From: a virus
Lineage: Duplodnaviria; Heunggongvirae; Uroviricota; Caudoviricetes
DNA length: 29,010 bases
IMG/VR virus record: IMGVR_UViG_2802429220_000002
Coordinates: 1-29,010 of that record
Reading direction: 5' to 3' (one strand)
Part shown: positions 2,719-9,508 of the stretch, piece after piece
Layout: the number at the start of each line of letters is the position of its first letter
Position numbering within the stretch: position 1 is the first letter of the stretch
Made by a program: the position numbers and the translations under genes
The notes under the pieces: model-generated
What the model saw: the letters and a program-made list of their open reading frames with translations, nothing else
The model's database searches: none
What the model was told of the DNA's origin: nothing

Positions 2719-2746
2719 TTGCGGGAAAAGGATAGTTAAGTAGAAT
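2719..2746 (+). promoter_or_regulatory. putative sigma70 promoter of the hok (mok/hok) mRNA
   Basis: TTGCGG, 16-nt spacer, TAGAAT. The predicted start (~2753) falls on gggtgcttgaggctg, which resembles the 5' end of plasmid R1 hok mRNA as I recall it. Confidence 0.45.
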
Positions 2747-2809
2747 TGCTGCGGGTGCTTGAGGCTGTCTGTCTCAGGCATGAACACCAAAAGGCAGATA
2801 GAGAAAAGC

Positions 2810-2874
2810 CCCAGTTAACATTACGCGTCCGGCAAGACGCTTAACATTAATCTGAGGCCATATCTATGCTCTAC
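2810..2874 (-). ncRNA. putative Sok-like antisense RNA (approximate coordinates)
   Basis: On the minus strand: TTGCCT (complement of 2904..2909), 17-nt spacer, TAACCT (complement of 2881..2886) would drive a short antisense transcript across the mok start/leader, as in hok/sok loci. Ends are not determined. Confidence 0.35.
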
Positions 2875-3078
2875 ACACGTAGGTTAGCCTCTTACGTGCC
2901 GAAAGGCAAGGAGAAGCAGGCTATGAAGCAGCAAAAGGCGATGCTAATCGCCCTGATCGTCATCTGTTTAACCGTCATAGTGACGGCACTGGTAACGAGG
3001 AAAGACCTCTGCGAGGTACGAATCCGAACCGGCCAGACGGAGGTCGCTGTCTTCACAGCTTACGAACCTGAGGAGTAA
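2866..3078 (+). CDS. hok: Hok/Gef-family type I toxin (51-aa Hok from ATG 2923; a mok-like in-frame upstream start at 2866)
   Basis: Translation MKQQKAMLIALIVICLTVIVTALVTRKDLCEVRIRTGQTEVAVFTAYEPEE has the Hok/Gef architecture (N-terminal TM helix, conserved Cys, ...AYE C-terminal region) and closely matches chromosomal HokD/RelF as I recall it. The leader resembles R1 hok mRNA. Confidence 0.9.
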   Translation: MLYTRRLASYVPKGKEKQAMKQQKAMLIALIVICLTVIVTALVTRKDLCEVRIRTGQTEVAVFTAYEPEE

Positions 3079-3148
3079 GAGACCTGGCGGGGGAGAATTC
3101 CCTCGCCACCTCTGATGTGTCAGGCTTCCTCAACGCACCCGCACTTAA

Positions 3149-3174
3149 CCCGCTTCGGCGGGTTTTGTTTTTTC
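3149..3174 (+). terminator. Rho-independent terminator after hok
   Basis: cccgc-ttcg-gcggg hairpin followed by gttttgttttttc. Confidence 0.6.
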
Positions 3175-3245
3175 TGTGCATTCTGGTTTACAATTCGCAC
3201 GCCAGCCTGAACAACTGGCACCTGCTGCGCCAGCAGAGACAACCG

Positions 3246-3524
3246 ATGGCGCATGATACCAAATTACACAATTCTGATGATTCTGCCGTCTTTGCCAGCA
3301 GGCACGGGCTGCGTTCTCACGCATTCAAATATGACTGGTATCAGCACGATCCCTGCACTGAAGAACAGGCCGAATGGCTGATTCATAACTACCGCAGACG
3401 TGGGTATGAGTTTAAGAAAGCCCTCAGTCTCGATTATCGTCACTGGATAATCTACGTCAGGCTCCCTTATTCCGAACGCCCGCCGCGTCCATCCCGCACA
3501 TTCCAGCAACGGATCTGGAGGTAA
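3246..3524 (+). CDS. hypothetical small protein (at the position rem occupies in the Qin prophage)
   Basis: ORF track 3117..3524 overlaps the hok terminator, so the start is more likely ATG 3246. Function unknown; the synteny hok - small ORF - ydfU-like matches E. coli Qin (hokD-rem-ydfU). Confidence 0.4.
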   Translation: MAHDTKLHNSDDSAVFASRHGLRSHAFKYDWYQHDPCTEEQAEWLIHNYRRRGYEFKKALSLDYRHWIIYVRLPYSERPPRPSRTFQQRIWR

Positions 3525-3525
3525 C

Positions 3526-4575
3526 GTGCGGGTATTACTTCGACCTGTTCCGGTGCCGGAACTCGGGCTGGTGGTCCTTAAGCCGGGCCGTGAATCTATG
3601 CAGGTATTTCATAATCCCCGGGTACTGGTGGAGCCGGAACCGAAAAGCATGCGCGGTCTGCCGTCCGGAGCTGTTCCTGCCGTTCGCCAGGCGCTGGCGG
3701 AAGATAAATCATTACTGCCATTTTTCAGCGATGAGCGGGTGATTCGTGCTGCTGGCGGCGCTGGTGCACTGTCTGACTGGCTGTTGCGTCATGTCAAATC
3801 CTGCCAGTGGCCTCATGGTGACTATCATCACAGTGAAACCGTCATACATCGTTACGGTACCGGCGCGATGGTGTTGTGCTGGCACTGCGACAACCAGTTG
3901 CGTGACCAGACCTCCGAATCACTCGGGCAACTTGCTCATCAAAACCTGTCGGCATGGATGATTGACGTCATACGCCACGCAATGAATGGCACACAAGAGC
4001 GGGAATTATCGCTGGCTGAATTGTACTGCTGGGCTGCTGTAAATGATGTAGTGGATGCCATGACCGAAAATATGGCGCGTCGAATCCTGAAGCGTCCGGG
4101 TGAAAAAATCCGCTCAATATACCGCGAGAGCGACATCATACCGGGAGAACCGACAGCCACCAGCATACTGAAGCAGCGCACAAAAAATATTGCGCTACCA
4201 CCTTACGCCCACCAGCAACAGAACCCACCACAGGAAAAGACGGTGGTCAGCATCGCCGTTGATCCGGAGTCTCCTGAATCTTTCATGAAGCGACCTAAAC
4301 GTCGCCGTTGGGTAAATGAGAAATATACGCGCTGGGTGAAGACACAGCCGTGTGCGTGTTGTGGTCAACCAGCCGACGATCCCCATCACCTGATTGGTCA
4401 TGGTCAGGGCGGAATGGGAACAAAGGCCCACGATATTTTTACACTACCGCTGTGCCGGGAGCATCACAACGAACTTCATGCGGATCTGCTGGCGTTCGAA
4501 GAAAACCATGGTTCCCAGATTGATTTAATTTTTCGTTTTCTTGATCACGCCTTTGCAACCGGCGTGCTTGGGTAA
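3526..4575 (+). CDS. ydfU: YdfU-like DUF968-family prophage protein
   Basis: 349 aa, GTG start 4 nt after GGAGG. C-terminal Cys/His cluster CACCGQPADDPHHLIGHG...CREHHNELH is typical of the DUF968/YdfU family; synteny with hok and rusA as in Qin. Confidence 0.65.
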   Translation: MRVLLRPVPVPELGLVVLKPGRESMQVFHNPRVLVEPEPKSMRGLPSGAVPAVRQALAEDKSLLPFFSDERVIRAAGGAGALSDWLLRHVKSCQWPHGDYHHSETVIHRYGTGAMVLCWHCDNQLRDQTSESLGQLAHQNLSAWMIDVIRHAMNGTQERELSLAELYCWAAVNDVVDAMTENMARRILKRPGEKIRSIYRESDIIPGEPTATSILKQRTKNIALPPYAHQQQNPPQEKTVVSIAVDPESPESFMKRPKRRRWVNEKYTRWVKTQPCACCGQPADDPHHLIGHGQGGMGTKAHDIFTLPLCREHHNELHADLLAFEENHGSQIDLIFRFLDHAFATGVLG

Positions 4576-4587
4576 AAGAGGTTACTG

Positions 4588-4959
4588 ATGCGTATAGAGT
4601 TTGTTTTGCCTTACCCGCCGACGGTGAACACCTACTGGCGACGTCATGGCAGCACATATTTTGTATCAAAAGCCGGTGAGCGTTATCGCCGTGATGTGGC
4701 GCTCATTGTTCGCCAGCAGCGGTTGAAATTAAACCTCTCCGGAAGGCTGGCGATAAAGATTATTGCAGAGCCACCGGATAAGCGCCGTCGTGACCTGGAC
4801 AATATCCTGAAAGCACTGCTGGATGCGCTGACACATGCGGGGCTGCTTATAGACGACGACCAGTTTGATGAAATCAATATTGTGCATGGTCTGCCTGTTT
4901 GCGGTGGGCGACTGGGTGTGAATATATTCGTAATAAGAGGATGTAATGATGTTGCGTGA
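4588..4959 (+). CDS. rusA: RusA-family Holliday junction resolvase
   Basis: N-terminal [12 protein letters not shown] and catalytic-region [16 protein letters not shown]...LIDDD match RusA signatures; ~120 aa; typical position upstream of Q. Confidence 0.85.
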
Positions 4960-5320
4960 TATTCAGCTGGTTATGGAGCGGTGGGGAGCATGGGCAGCAA
5001 ATAATCATGAAGATGTAACATGGTCCTCGATAGCTGCTGGTTTTAAAGGATTAATCCCGACTAAAGTGAAATCACGTCCTCAGTGTTCTGATGATGACGC
5101 CATGATAATTTGTGGCTGTATGGCACGATTAAACAAGAATAATCAGTATTTGCACGATTTGTTGGTGGATTATTACGTAGGTGGAATGACATTTATGGCT
5201 CTTGCACGTAAGCATAGATGTTCTGATGGGCTTATTGGTAAAAGACTTTATAAAGCTGAAGGTATTATTGAAGGAATGCTTATGGCTCTGAATGTCCGGT
5301 TAGATATGGATATGCGGTAG
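4946..5320 (+). CDS. late-gene antitermination protein Q (small Q family)
   Basis: 124 aa with a WGAWAA motif and Cys cluster, directly after rusA and before the late/lysis region, as expected for Q in lambdoid genomes. Confidence 0.65.
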
Positions 5321-5413
5321 GGATATATAGTGACGAGGGTTATGTTTTCTGTGTTTATAATTAATATGTTTATTTTTTGATGGTCATGAATTTTATGGAA
5401 GGTAAACAAAATG

Positions 5414-5442
5414 TTGCCAAGTGAATTGAAAATATTGATAAT
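5414..5442 (+). promoter_or_regulatory. putative sigma70 promoter of the CPBP/Abi moron
   Basis: TTGCCA, 17-nt spacer, GATAAT, about 30 nt upstream of the RBS AAGGAG and ATG 5474. The late promoter/qut region is probably in 5321..5410 (possible TGACGA ... TATAAT at 5331..5361, weak). Confidence 0.45.
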
Positions 5443-5473
5443 CAATCATCATCATTAAATAAAAGGAGTGTTT

Positions 5474-6292
5474 ATGTGGATTGTGTTAGCACTGTCACTG
5501 TCAACTCTCAGTTGGCATAAGGTAGTGGCTTTTTCATTGTTGACGGTGTCTGTTGTCCTGGCTGTGCTTAATGATATTATTGATTGGCCGGTGTTGTTTT
5601 TTGTTGCTACAATCGTTTTTTTTATTATTTTGAAGTTCAACTGGAAATATAACGCCTGGGCTAAATCCATATATGAAGCTGGCATAGTTTTATCAGCCAT
5701 AGCATTATCTTTCCATTTATGGCCAGGGTTTCACAATCCTGTAGTGCTAAAGTCTGTCACTATCGGACCTCAAAGCACTCCCTATACAATGTATTTTAAT
5801 TTTGATAAAGCGCTGGTGCCATTTTTGTTAGTCCTGTGTACAGCTTCTTTGTTTAAAAAAGAAGTGAAATCAGAAGTGTCTTTGTGGAAATGGGGGGCTA
5901 TGTTGCTCTCTGTTCCTCTTATACTGTTTTTGGCTGTTTTTTTTGGTGGGTTAAAGCCAGAGATTCATTTCCCAGAGTGGTTGCCAGAGTTTATATTGGC
6001 TAATTTGTTTTTTGTGTCTCTGGCAGAGGAGTCATTATTTAGAGGGTATATTCAATCACGGCTATCAGAAGTGACGTCTCCATTGGTTGCGTTAATTGTG
6101 GCGTCTTTGTTGTTTGGTTTTTATCACTATTCAGGTGGTGCTTTACTTGTATTATTTGCCACGTTATCTGGTGTTGTGTATGGATTGTCATGGATGTGGA
6201 GTGGGCGCTTGTGGGTGGCAACCCTTTTCCATTTTGGTCTGAATCTGTGTCACTTGTTATTCTTTACCTATCCATTCTTAAAACATAATTGA
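5474..6292 (+). CDS. CPBP-family intramembrane metalloprotease (CAAX protease / Abi-domain protein)
   Basis: Polytopic membrane protein with the three CPBP motifs: EExxxR (LAEESLFRGY), FxxxH (FGFYHY), HxxxN (HFGLNL). The gene is visibly AT/T-rich relative to flanking phage genes. The ORF track starts at GTG 5468; ATG 5474 has better RBS spacing. Confidence 0.8.
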   Translation: MWIVLALSLSTLSWHKVVAFSLLTVSVVLAVLNDIIDWPVLFFVATIVFFIILKFNWKYNAWAKSIYEAGIVLSAIALSFHLWPGFHNPVVLKSVTIGPQSTPYTMYFNFDKALVPFLLVLCTASLFKKEVKSEVSLWKWGAMLLSVPLILFLAVFFGGLKPEIHFPEWLPEFILANLFFVSLAEESLFRGYIQSRLSEVTSPLVALIVASLLFGFYHYSGGALLVLFATLSGVVYGLSWMWSGRLWVATLFHFGLNLCHLLFFTYPFLKHN

Positions 6293-6433
6293 TTTTTTTC
6301 TATGGCTTTAAATTTATAACACAGAAAAATAGCAGTATGTGACATTTGCATGAAAAATATGCACGGCAAAGCATTTACGTACGTAAAAAATCATGTATGC
6401 TTTTAAGAGTGGTTATTTCACCGCATAGCCTGA

Positions 6434-6456
6434 ACCCGCCTCTGAGCGGGTTTTTT
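6434..6456 (+). terminator. Rho-independent terminator downstream of the CPBP gene
   Basis: acccgc-ctctga-gcgggt hairpin followed by tttttt. Confidence 0.55.
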
Positions 6457-6579
6457 GTGCCCGCAAAGTAGCGCAGTGCGTTAAATGTGCTGGTAGTTAT
6501 TAATACTGGTCTTTCTGCTTGCTGGCTTTTTAGACAAGAGTTATTGGTATGTTACGTTAACCAGAAAAGGGAAAAAGAC

Positions 6580-6777
6580 ATGCTAAAACAGCAGGATATG
6601 ACCGAAACCGCCAGAGTGGTGTTTAATGAATTAAGCGTCACCGAACCGGCGACCGTCGGGGAGATTGCGCAGAATACTTACCTTTCACGCGAGCGCTGCC
6701 AGTTAATACTGACTCAGCTTGTTATGGCGGGTCTGGCAGATTATCAGTTCGGTTGTTACAGACGCCTTCCGCAGTGA
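6580..6777 (+). CDS. hypothetical small protein, possible winged-helix DNA-binding
   Basis: 65 aa from ATG 6580 with a purine-rich stretch upstream; TVGEIAQNTYLSRERCQLILTQLVMAGL looks like an HTH recognition segment. Weak assignment. Confidence 0.35.
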   Translation: MLKQQDMTETARVVFNELSVTEPATVGEIAQNTYLSRERCQLILTQLVMAGLADYQFGCYRRLPQ

Positions 6778-6927
6778 AGGCTTTTTAATTTGTGGTAATG
6801 GGCGGCTGGTGGGTGTTAGCGGCACCTGCCAGCCATCTGCTCATGCGTTGGGGTCACAAGCAAACCTCAGGCCCATCTGCTTTGCGCAAAAGCGGTATGA
6901 GCCTATCAGAGAAGTGCTTATTGATCT

Positions 6928-7477
6928 ATGGCTAATACTGTAAAAATATCCAGCTTCGAGTTAATCAACGCTGATTTCCTAGAATTTATCCAGACCTTAC
7001 CGGAAAACTCTGTCGATCTGATAGTCACAGACCCGCCATACTTTAAAGTGAAGCCCGAGGGCTGGGATAACCAGTGGAAGGGCGACGATGATTACCTGAA
7101 ATGGCTGGATCAGTGTCTGGCGCAGTTCTGGTGGGTATTAAAACCCGCCGGAAGTCTTTACCTGTTCTGTGGTCATCGCCTGGCATCTGATATCGAAATC
7201 ATGATGCGTGAGCGCTTTAATGTGCTGAACCACATTATCTGGGCGAAGCCGTCCGGGCGCTGGAACGGGTGCAACAAGGAAAGCCTGCGGGCGTATTTCC
7301 CGGCAACAGAGCGCATTCTGTTTGCGTCCGGGAGATTTGGTTGCCGACTTTTTCATGGGGTCAGGCTCCATAATAAAAGCAGCGCTGGCACTTGGGGGCA
7401 TGGCGTTAAGCGTTGAACTTGAGTCTGAACGTTTTGAGCATACTGCGGGTGAAATAGTTACGTTGGCAGATAATTAA
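6928..7477 (+). pseudogene. DNA N6-adenine/N4-cytosine methyltransferase, interrupted by a frameshift near 7330 (or a sequencing error)
   Basis: N-terminal part (6928..7416) carries the catalytic DPPY motif (LIVTDPPYF). The AdoMet-binding motif (DLVADFFMGSGSIIKAALALG) is encoded in a different frame (7334..7477). Neither frame alone gives a complete enzyme. Confidence 0.75.
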
Positions 7478-7591
7478 ATCACTGCACAATAAGCTAATGA
7501 ATTGATGTTAACTTCCCGTATTATTGGGCTACTTCGAGAGAAAGGTGCATTACATTTCAGATGTATTTCATCTCACATCCGAGGAAGCAAT

Positions 7592-7667
<76 letters not shown>

Positions 7668-7670
7668 TAT

Positions 7671-7745
<75 letters not shown>

Positions 7746-7877
7746 ACATTTGATAGAGGCGTATTGCAGCACTGGCGTATTTTTATTACGTGAGGACAGA
7801 TTGTTTTTTTAGGAACTCTCAGTTTTCGGGCTATGTTTTGAGGCCAGGTTAGCCTCAGTGCTGATTTTTTACAATAC

Positions 7878-7946
7878 CGGAATGGTGCATTATTGGTTGG
7901 GCTACGTAGTGAGCCCTATGGCAGGTACCGGTAATGCACCATTCCG
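7878..7946. repeat. 15-bp perfect inverted repeat (cggaatggtgcatta / taatgcaccattccg) with a 39-nt structured loop
   Basis: Arms at 7878..7892 and 7932..7946 are exact reverse complements. The loop holds a further hairpin (gggct...agccc). The ggtgcatta core also occurs at 7546..7554 upstream of the tRNAs. Confidence 0.6.
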
Positions 7947-8025
7947 ATGTTGTAAACATCACTTAGAGTAAGTTATAGAACAATTTGCTACTAAGTAAAA
8001 CCTGAAACCTGGGAATACATCTTTA

Positions 8026-8050
8026 CCGCCACACCTGGCGGTTTTTTTTT
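8026..8050 (+). terminator. Rho-independent terminator closing the methylase/tRNA unit
   Basis: ccgcca-cacc-tggcgg hairpin followed by nine T. Confidence 0.6.
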
Positions 8051-8148
8051 ATTCTGTTTTTTCATGGCTCGCTACGGCGGCCTTTTTCATGTATACCCTG
8101 GCGGTTATTATGATGGCTTGTTTATTTGTTCATAAGAGGATTGATACA

Positions 8149-8631
8149 GTGGTCACTTATGCTGATATCAGGGCAAAACGGGCCGAAATACTGAAAGCTA
8201 AGCAGGAATACATTCAGCGGTTGCGGGATACAGCCACAAGGCTGGTCAATGCCTATGAGTCTTCACTGGCGTTGCCGGAACTGCAATGGCGAGACATTGA
8301 GGGTGAGTTACATCCTTACGTCTATATTTGCCTCAATGGCTTCAGTGTCCGACCGGAGGATTTGCAGGTAGACCTTAGGGACGGAGTTGCGTTTAATTTA
8401 TACACGGTTGTTGATGACAATCCCCGCCAGTCTGCAAGTGTGGAAGTTGGTGTAAAGATTGTGCTGCTTGATGGCGATAACCTGACGATTTCAGTTAATG
8501 GTTATGGGGACAGAACATTTTCGCACGTAGATACCGATGCAAAAATTAACGAGGTATGCGAGTTCATCAAAGACAGTATTTTAATGTCGATGAATGATGT
8601 GAATTTGGCAAAGCATCTCTGCCGAAGATAG
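8149..8631 (+). CDS. uncharacterised cargo protein (~160 aa)
   Basis: Longest ORF is 8089..8631, but AAGAGGA sits 7 nt before in-frame GTG 8149, and a promoter-like TTTTCA-16-TATTAT (8084..8111) overlaps the 8089 ATG, so 8149 is the more likely start. Soluble, acidic, no motif I recognise. Confidence 0.5.
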   Translation: MVTYADIRAKRAEILKAKQEYIQRLRDTATRLVNAYESSLALPELQWRDIEGELHPYVYICLNGFSVRPEDLQVDLRDGVAFNLYTVVDDNPRQSASVEVGVKIVLLDGDNLTISVNGYGDRTFSHVDTDAKINEVCEFIKDSILMSMNDVNLAKHLCRR

Positions 8632-8844
8632 AAGGCAGGAGTCGTAAAAAGGAATCGTTCGAAAATCTCAGAATCACCAGGCTGCGCATTTGCGTGGCCT
8701 TTTTTGTATCCGCGCCACGCCCGGCGCATATCAAAAACCACAGAGCCTTTCAGGGGTGAGCTTACGGGATGGTCAGTGTGACTTTCTCTGTGGGCTGGTC
8801 ACCCCCCCCGGGCGCAGGCTCACCCCCTAAAAGGAAAAGTCACG

Positions 8845-9270
8845 ATGTTTGGTATTTTCAAAAAGAAAACTCGCAAGGCCATTACCGAAGTGAAGAAGAT
8901 GGAGAACCGCGACGCAGTGGAGGCGACCGTCTGGGGTGCGTATTCCATTGCATACGCTGACGACACCTGTGACGCGAAAGAAATCGCGGTACTGGAGAAA
9001 ACCATTGCAGCACTTCCTGCCTTTGCGCCGTTCTCCGGTGAGATTGCACAAATGAGTGCAAATATCCGCGCCCGTTATGAAGCGTCGCCGCGCTCTGCCA
9101 ATGCTGAAGCCCTTCGTCAGCTGGCTGATGTTGCAGGTACTGATGACGCAGTTAATGTGCTGTGCCTGTGTCTGGATATCGCAGACCAGGATGGCATTGG
9201 TCCGGATGAAGAAGCACAGCTCAAGAAAATTGCTCAGGCGCTGCAGTTACCGCTGGAGCAGTATCTGTGA
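8845..9270 (+). CDS. TerB-like (tellurite-resistance TerB family) protein
   Basis: 141 aa with a strong RBS (AAAAGGAAAAG). All-helical and acidic, with the TerB-type acidic motif (LDIADQDGIGPDEEAQLKKIAQALQL) and earlier DDTCDAKEIAVLEKTIAAL. Confidence 0.65.
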   Translation: MFGIFKKKTRKAITEVKKMENRDAVEATVWGAYSIAYADDTCDAKEIAVLEKTIAALPAFAPFSGEIAQMSANIRARYEASPRSANAEALRQLADVAGTDDAVNVLCLCLDIADQDGIGPDEEAQLKKIAQALQLPLEQYL

Positions 9271-9419
9271 AAAGTGCGCGCCTTGTACTGGCTGCCATCC
9301 TGCTGTTTCTGGTAGTGGTGGTGGATTTCACCGGACGGCTGATGTCGGTGCTGGCAGATGGTGTGCTGGTGGCGATGGCGCTGGTCGTGCTCCGGCCTTT
9401 ACTGCGCAAATCTGAATGA
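9267..9419 (+). CDS. putative small membrane peptide (50 aa)
   Basis: GTG overlaps the TerB stop (GTGA), implying translational coupling. Product VKSARLVLAAILLFLVVVVDFTGRLMSVLADGVLVAMALVVLRPLLRKSE is one or two TM helices. Below the ORF-track cut-off. Confidence 0.35.
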   Translation: MKSARLVLAAILLFLVVVVDFTGRLMSVLADGVLVAMALVVLRPLLRKSE

Positions 9420-9467
9420 CACCACACAAAAGGCATCTGCGGGTGCCTTTGACGGGGTGTTTTTTAC

Positions 9468-9489
9468 GGGCCGCTGGTGGCCCTTTTTT
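9468..9489 (+). terminator. Rho-independent terminator after the TerB cassette
   Basis: gggcc-gctggt-ggccc hairpin followed by tttttt; preceded by a second hairpin (aaggca...tgcctt, 9430..9449). Confidence 0.5.
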
Positions 9490-9508
9490 ATTTACAGGAG
9501 AAAAAAGT

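Follow-up and report, generated by a model that had tools for sequence, protein, structure and literature searches.

M.EcoGII is a 349-aa beta-class methyltransferase of an Escherichia coli O104:H4 prophage (Murray et al., PMC5778455). It methylates adenine in any sequence context, it is silent in the lysogen, and its constitutive expression is harmful (PMC5778455). It belongs to a very large family, found in prophages of E. coli and also in phages, 1720a-02 among them; reportedly, even intact genes of this type stay silent in the lysogen (PMC5778455). A Rossmann domain in two parts (residues 1-134 and 260-349) is joined by long linkers to the recognition domain (TRD, residues 160-237), which is a bundle of four helices (PMC11551740). 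Along the chain, an intact enzyme of ~350 aa presents the catalytic motif IV (DPPY), the helix-bundle TRD, and then the AdoMet-binding motif I (FxGxG). It has been proposed in the literature that M.EcoGII-type enzymes methylate the adenines of progeny DNA in any sequence context, evading host restriction.

The window analyzed here is the whole 29,010-nt stretch of IMG/VR virus record IMGVR_UViG_2802429220_000002. With high confidence, its region 6928-7477 can be regarded as a pseudogene of a prophage beta-class N6-adenine DNA methyltransferase of the M.EcoGII family, inactivated by a 503-bp deletion. The allele is already flagged in RefSeq as a pseudogene ('incomplete; missing C-terminus'), and the family is well characterized. 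The remnant comprises the following features:

6928..7324, + strand: 5' methyltransferase remnant, codons 1-132 plus one base, frame 1; holds DPPY
7324..7325, + strand: deletion junction, TTTG before and CGTCC after, from MAFFT alignment to intact alleles and exact count
7325..7416, + strand: out-of-frame tail of the truncated product, ~30 unrelated residues and then a TGA stop, frame 1
7325..7477, + strand: 3' methyltransferase remnant, codons 301 to stop, frame 2; holds FFMGSGS

The DPPY motif is encoded at 7030-7041, within an ATG-started open reading frame (ORF) in frame 1 (6928..7416, 162 aa), and FFMGSGS, the form taken by motif I, at 7349-7369, within an overlapping ORF in frame 2 (7322..7477, 51 aa). 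By profile score, both ORFs belong to Pfam family PF01555 (N6_N4_Mtase): the first with 60.8 bits (E 2.4e-16, profile positions 1-105 of 221) and the second with 34.6 bits (E 2.4e-08, positions 180-218 of 221), both above the gathering score of 26.7 bits. This resemblance is not due to chance. Between the two matches, ~75 profile positions (106-179) are absent. An earlier note on this DNA had read the two motifs in these two frames, with a switch near 7330. The ORF positions and the Pfam matches confirm the former, and the switch can now be located between 7324 and 7325, both by alignment and by tblastn with an intact homologue, which finds residues 1-138 in frame 1 and residues 301-344 in frame 2. 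The same tblastn search gave no further methylase copy within the window. The translation of 6928..7416 ends in ...ERILF, followed beyond the junction by ASGRFGCRLFHGVRLHNKSSAGTWGHGVKR and the stop codon. The 3' remnant has no proper start: there is no ATG upstream of motif I, and the first one, at 7355, lies inside FFMGSGS. For the same allele, RefSeq calls only a 40-aa ORF from the 3' remnant, a hypothetical protein starting at this ATG.

The methylase is thus split across two frames, as the earlier note had proposed, but the cause is an internal deletion and not a simple frameshift. Alignment to the intact genes of phage phiP27 (L24; 352 aa, 1,059 bp) and E. coli A36 (348 aa, 1,047 bp) opens a 503-bp gap at the 7324/7325 junction, corresponding to nt 398-900, or codons 133-300 (168 codons), of the A36 gene. 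At the protein level, residues 1-132 and 301-348 are kept, with the second block in the other frame; the AdoMet-binding end is out of frame because 503 is not a multiple of three. Based on the M.EcoGII domain limits (PMC11551740), the lost part contains the whole TRD, both linkers, and Rossmann residues 260-300, including HPCEKP; in beta-class enzymes of solved structure, HPTQKP aligns with it, just ahead of motif I. A repeat-mediated deletion was considered and rejected, as no direct repeat of at least 8 nt is found at both breakpoints; the position of the gap is ambiguous by only 1 nt. Illegitimate recombination is, therefore, likelier than slippage between repeats, and this is what the event looks like from the bases at the junction. 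A single event of this kind would have removed the 503 bp (codons 133-300) and shifted the frame, taking away the TRD, both linkers, and the first ~40 residues of the second Rossmann half at the same time.

Identity to M.EcoGII is high, as expected for a member of its family. The window shares 124 of 132 residues (93.9%) with it over residues 1-132 and 32 of 47 (68%) in the tail, and over ~346 aa M.EcoGII is 86.1% identical to the intact protein of A36 and 87.6% identical to that of phiP27; these identities are slight underestimates, since the M.EcoGII sequence was machine-read from the supplement of PMC11551740, with a few reading errors. At the DNA level, the identity of 6928..7324 is 96.0% with the A36 gene and 92.7% with phiP27 L24, and phage 1720a-02, which carries a very similar methyltransferase according to PMC5778455, matches the window at 90.2% identity. 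The siting is also that of M.EcoGII-type genes in lambdoid/P27-like late regions, downstream of Q and upstream of tRNAs and lysis genes. The architecture is not: motif IV, TRD, and motif I do not follow each other on one polypeptide, the order being kept with the TRD deleted and motif I in the other frame, and the four-helix-bundle TRD with its split Rossmann domain is missing, residues 133-300 being absent. The locus qualifies as a gene remnant and not as an enzyme.

The translatable product consists of 132 native residues followed by ~30 nonsense residues. Since it has no AdoMet site, methyltransferase activity has presumably been lost in the window copy; with the AdoMet-binding half gone from the product, no context-independent adenine methylation is predicted. 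The inactivation of the phage methylase, one of the two options of the earlier note, is thus the one to retain, with both essential motifs in different frames and codons 133-300 gone. The self-methylating anti-restriction function of the prophage has almost certainly been lost as well. Methylome analysis of the lysogen would be of little use to check this, because even an intact gene of the M.EcoGII type is reportedly silent in the lysogen (PMC5778455).

Among 5,426 complete E. coli genomes, the 5' part of the gene is present in 1,875, and the full-length gene (counted where one place spans 80% or more of the intact gene) in about 1,665. The gene is normally full-length and the deleted allele a rare exception; no copy of this allele was found among 50,697 deposited phage genomes. 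At least two strains, N96 and 06-00048, have both a deleted and a full-length copy. Recurrent gene loss was considered as a general pattern and is unsupported, as a full-length place exists in 1,667 of the 1,678 records that match.

Any isolated frame break in raw sequence carries a reasonable prior of being a sequencing or assembly error in a gene that is really intact, which was the other option of the earlier note. Here, nothing specific speaks for it, and its probability is next to nil. The gap relative to intact genes measures 503 bp, unlike a homopolymer-type indel. Moreover, 6780-7800 has a colinear match at 98.6-99.8% in seven complete E. coli genomes (N96, GB089, 09-00049, 06-00048, RM9088, OkiPb01715, and OkiPb01695). 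A 40-nt string across the junction is found exactly in GB089, N96, and OkiPb01695, the three complete genomes fetched, as well as in three IMG/VR contigs, and is missing from the intact alleles compared. The sources of the genomes with an identical junction are varied (Tibetan pig, ground beef, lettuce, crow, and bovine faeces), and 261 contigs are recorded with the 40-aa tail ORF. The same junction in independently assembled complete genomes and in viral contigs implies one inherited event and rules out an assembly error; resequencing is, therefore, not expected to bring back a single ORF. The deletion is old enough for the identical junction to be common to several unrelated E. coli strains. 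This persistence of the allele, together with DPPY and FxGxG both still being readable, could be taken in favor of a functional enzyme, either as a two-subunit methyltransferase or as a short active form made by programmed +1/-2 ribosomal frameshifting near 7324. Nevertheless, such an enzyme is highly improbable, as even a fused product would be devoid of residues 133-300 (TRD, Rossmann residues 260-300, and HPCEKP). In addition, the second ORF has no ATG ahead of the one at 7355 inside motif I, the junction is a deletion breakpoint with no conserved slippery site, and the tail changes are non-conservative in the conserved GRRAIGVE segment, which now reads GGMALSVE. It is also very unlikely that the 162-aa fragment is expressed on induction as a dominant-negative partner of co-resident intact M.EcoGII-type enzymes, or that the deletion was selected because a leaky non-specific methylase harms the lysogen. 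The fragment retains most of the residues reported for the M.EcoGII dimer interface (97-110 and 116-140; PMC11551740); the support for both ideas is one of compatibility and goes no further.

A last alternative concerns the way in which the junction arose. DNA identity to A36 is 96.0% on the left side of the junction but only 68.6% on the right, and 7325-7590, i.e., the last ~150 bases of the gene and the spacer before the tRNAs, is a distinct mosaic segment, the spacer of which barely aligns to A36. The tail is found in only 8 of the 5,426 complete E. coli genomes, always in truncated genes; a 21-nt tail pattern occurs in four IMG/VR contigs, again all with truncated genes, and has no match in GTDB species representatives. 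This would agree with an unequal recombination between two diverged alleles, one with an A36-like 5' end and the other with the divergent 3' tail, the outcome of which would also be a dead chimeric gene. This origin is, however, unlikely. E. coli 08-00022 and IMG/VR contig L010 have the same tail joined to a normal central region, which in L010 is 91% identical to A36 nt 672-956. The tail lineage, therefore, had an ordinary full-length gene, and the divergence starts downstream of the breakpoint. Furthermore, the breakpoints show no homology able to support homologous exchange. An internal deletion within a single gene thus remains the preferred reading.

These two sequences (L004 3773-4153 for 08-00022) represent a second truncation in the same lineage: the 5' end and the upstream helix-turn-helix (HTH) gene are deleted, whereas nt 672-900, absent from the window, are retained. 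Neither truncated allele can be derived from the other, which implies two independent losses from a full-length ancestor. At the DNA level, no intact gene with the window's 3' tail was found in the 5,426 complete E. coli genomes, IMG/VR, or GTDB species representatives; at the protein level, all matches to the 50-aa tail were short (27-88 aa), so that this search was unable to reveal full-length parents. The exact parent thus lies outside the sequences sampled, and its gene might already have been impaired when the deletion took place. The differences that separate the tail from intact alleles fall mostly at third codon positions (10, 5, and 23 at positions 1, 2, and 3), as do those between two intact alleles (9, 2, and 21), while those between the two truncated alleles are even (3, 3, and 4) and affect the conserved GRRAIGVE segment. 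The numbers are small, but the pattern is consistent with a divergent allele that was once functional and drifted afterwards.

The remnant lies in the late region, between the small HTH gene and a pair of tRNA genes, and its neighbors follow one another in this order:

4946..5320, + strand: Q antiterminator gene (Pfam Phage_antitermQ, 172.7 bits)
5414-5442: promoter-like site between Q and the protease gene
5468-6292, + strand: Rce1/CPBP-family intramembrane protease gene (Pfam PF02517, 71 bits)
6580..6777, + strand: small HTH gene, 65 aa, intact (WP_000917767.1), found upstream of intact and deleted alleles
6764-6781: terminator-like hairpin at the end of the 65-aa HTH gene
7592-7667, + strand: tRNA-Thr(TGT) (ARAGORN, Rfam tRNA)
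7671-7745, + strand: tRNA-Gly(TCC) (ARAGORN, Rfam tRNA)
8089-8631, + strand: 180-aa ORF, no Pfam match
8845-9270, + strand: TerB-family gene

Further downstream, holin, M15 endolysin, P27-type terminase, portal, capsid, sheath, tape-measure, and baseplate genes are found in long open frames. Rfam detected no other RNA families in or beside the methylase remnant. The position of the methylase predicts Q-dependent late expression, in agreement with the reported silence of M.EcoGII in lysogens; downstream of Q, in the late operon, the intact enzyme would be made only in lytic growth, where it would presumably play its anti-restriction role. The 65-aa HTH protein, conserved immediately upstream of the methylase, could be a candidate controller of its expression. 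Its phiP27 counterpart, L23, is annotated as belonging to the TrmB family; the Pfam TrmB match of the window protein is weak (18 bits) and below the cut-off. The slot directly downstream of Q is occupied by the protease gene in the window and by a GIY-YIG nuclease gene in phiP27 and E. coli A36; these different genes point to an exchangeable cargo position in the late leader. The tRNA-Thr/tRNA-Gly pair takes the position of ileZ/argO in phiP27, and the stx2e slot of phiP27 corresponds to the 180-aa ORF and the TerB-family gene. In the early region, Rfam gives a full-length sok antitoxin RNA match at 2753-2928 (+ strand; 116 bits, gathering score 59), which indicates a hok/sok-type toxin-antitoxin locus; the Hok/Gef gene at the corresponding place carries a frameshift according to the annotation of OkiPb01695, the closest genome.

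The stretch ~2738-9493 is common, at 97-98%, to prophages with lambda-like lysis and structural modules (GB089, N96, and L007), while the remainder of the window matches the P27-like prophage carried by OkiPb01695, its own late genes being P27-like. As this ~7 kb module occurs in prophages with different structural genes, the deleted allele has travelled inside a mosaic module. The segment 26414-29010 is inverted in OkiPb01695, where it adjoins IS66/IS21 elements; the window's prophage, therefore, looks the less rearranged of the two.

In practice, the prophage is best annotated as having no working M.EcoGII-type methyltransferase, and the observation has little significance beyond this correct annotation. 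The released phage would be devoid of the broad m6A protection against host restriction thought to be conferred by intact relatives. The single identical junction offers a clean lineage marker for the ~7 kb Q-to-tRNA module that has moved between P27-like and lambda-like prophages. More generally, two motifs read in two frames can conceal a large deletion, and not necessarily a one-base frameshift.

Compared with known systems, the window gene belongs to the same family as M.EcoGII and M.EcoGI, the non-specific N6-adenine DNA/RNA methyltransferases of E. coli O104:H4 C227-11 prophages (PMC5778455, PMC7544214, PMC11551740); like them, it has its motifs in the beta-class order and resides in a prophage of E. 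coli. Unlike M.EcoGII, the window copy is devoid of codons 133-300 (TRD, linkers, and part of the Rossmann fold), its frame is shifted, and its last ~50 codons come from a divergent allele that is 68% identical. The solved beta-class methyltransferases M.RsrI (1eg2), CcrM (6pbd), M.MboIIA (1g60), and DpnA (5hfj) are more distant (E-values 1e-14 to 1e-25); they have the homologous DPPY and HPxxKP...FxGxG motifs, but they are sequence-specific, with unrelated recognition domains. In all of them, as in the intact homologues, the two motifs are on one chain, which speaks against the idea that they are normally carried by separate proteins. The nearest phage genes are phiP27 L24 (NP_543076.1) and the 'DNA methylase' of many Stx2-converting phages, which are 90-94% identical to the window over the 547 nt of 6780-7326 (5' part and upstream spacer), the homology ending at ~7326 in every matching phage. 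PhiP27 and the window have P27-like structural genes and a common neighborhood: Q, an accessory gene, a small HTH gene, the methylase, tRNAs, a cargo gene, and lysis genes. The phiP27 and Stx2-phage genes are, however, intact (352 aa) and are followed by ileZ/argO and stx2e, whereas in the window the remnant is followed by tRNA-Thr/tRNA-Gly and no toxin genes.
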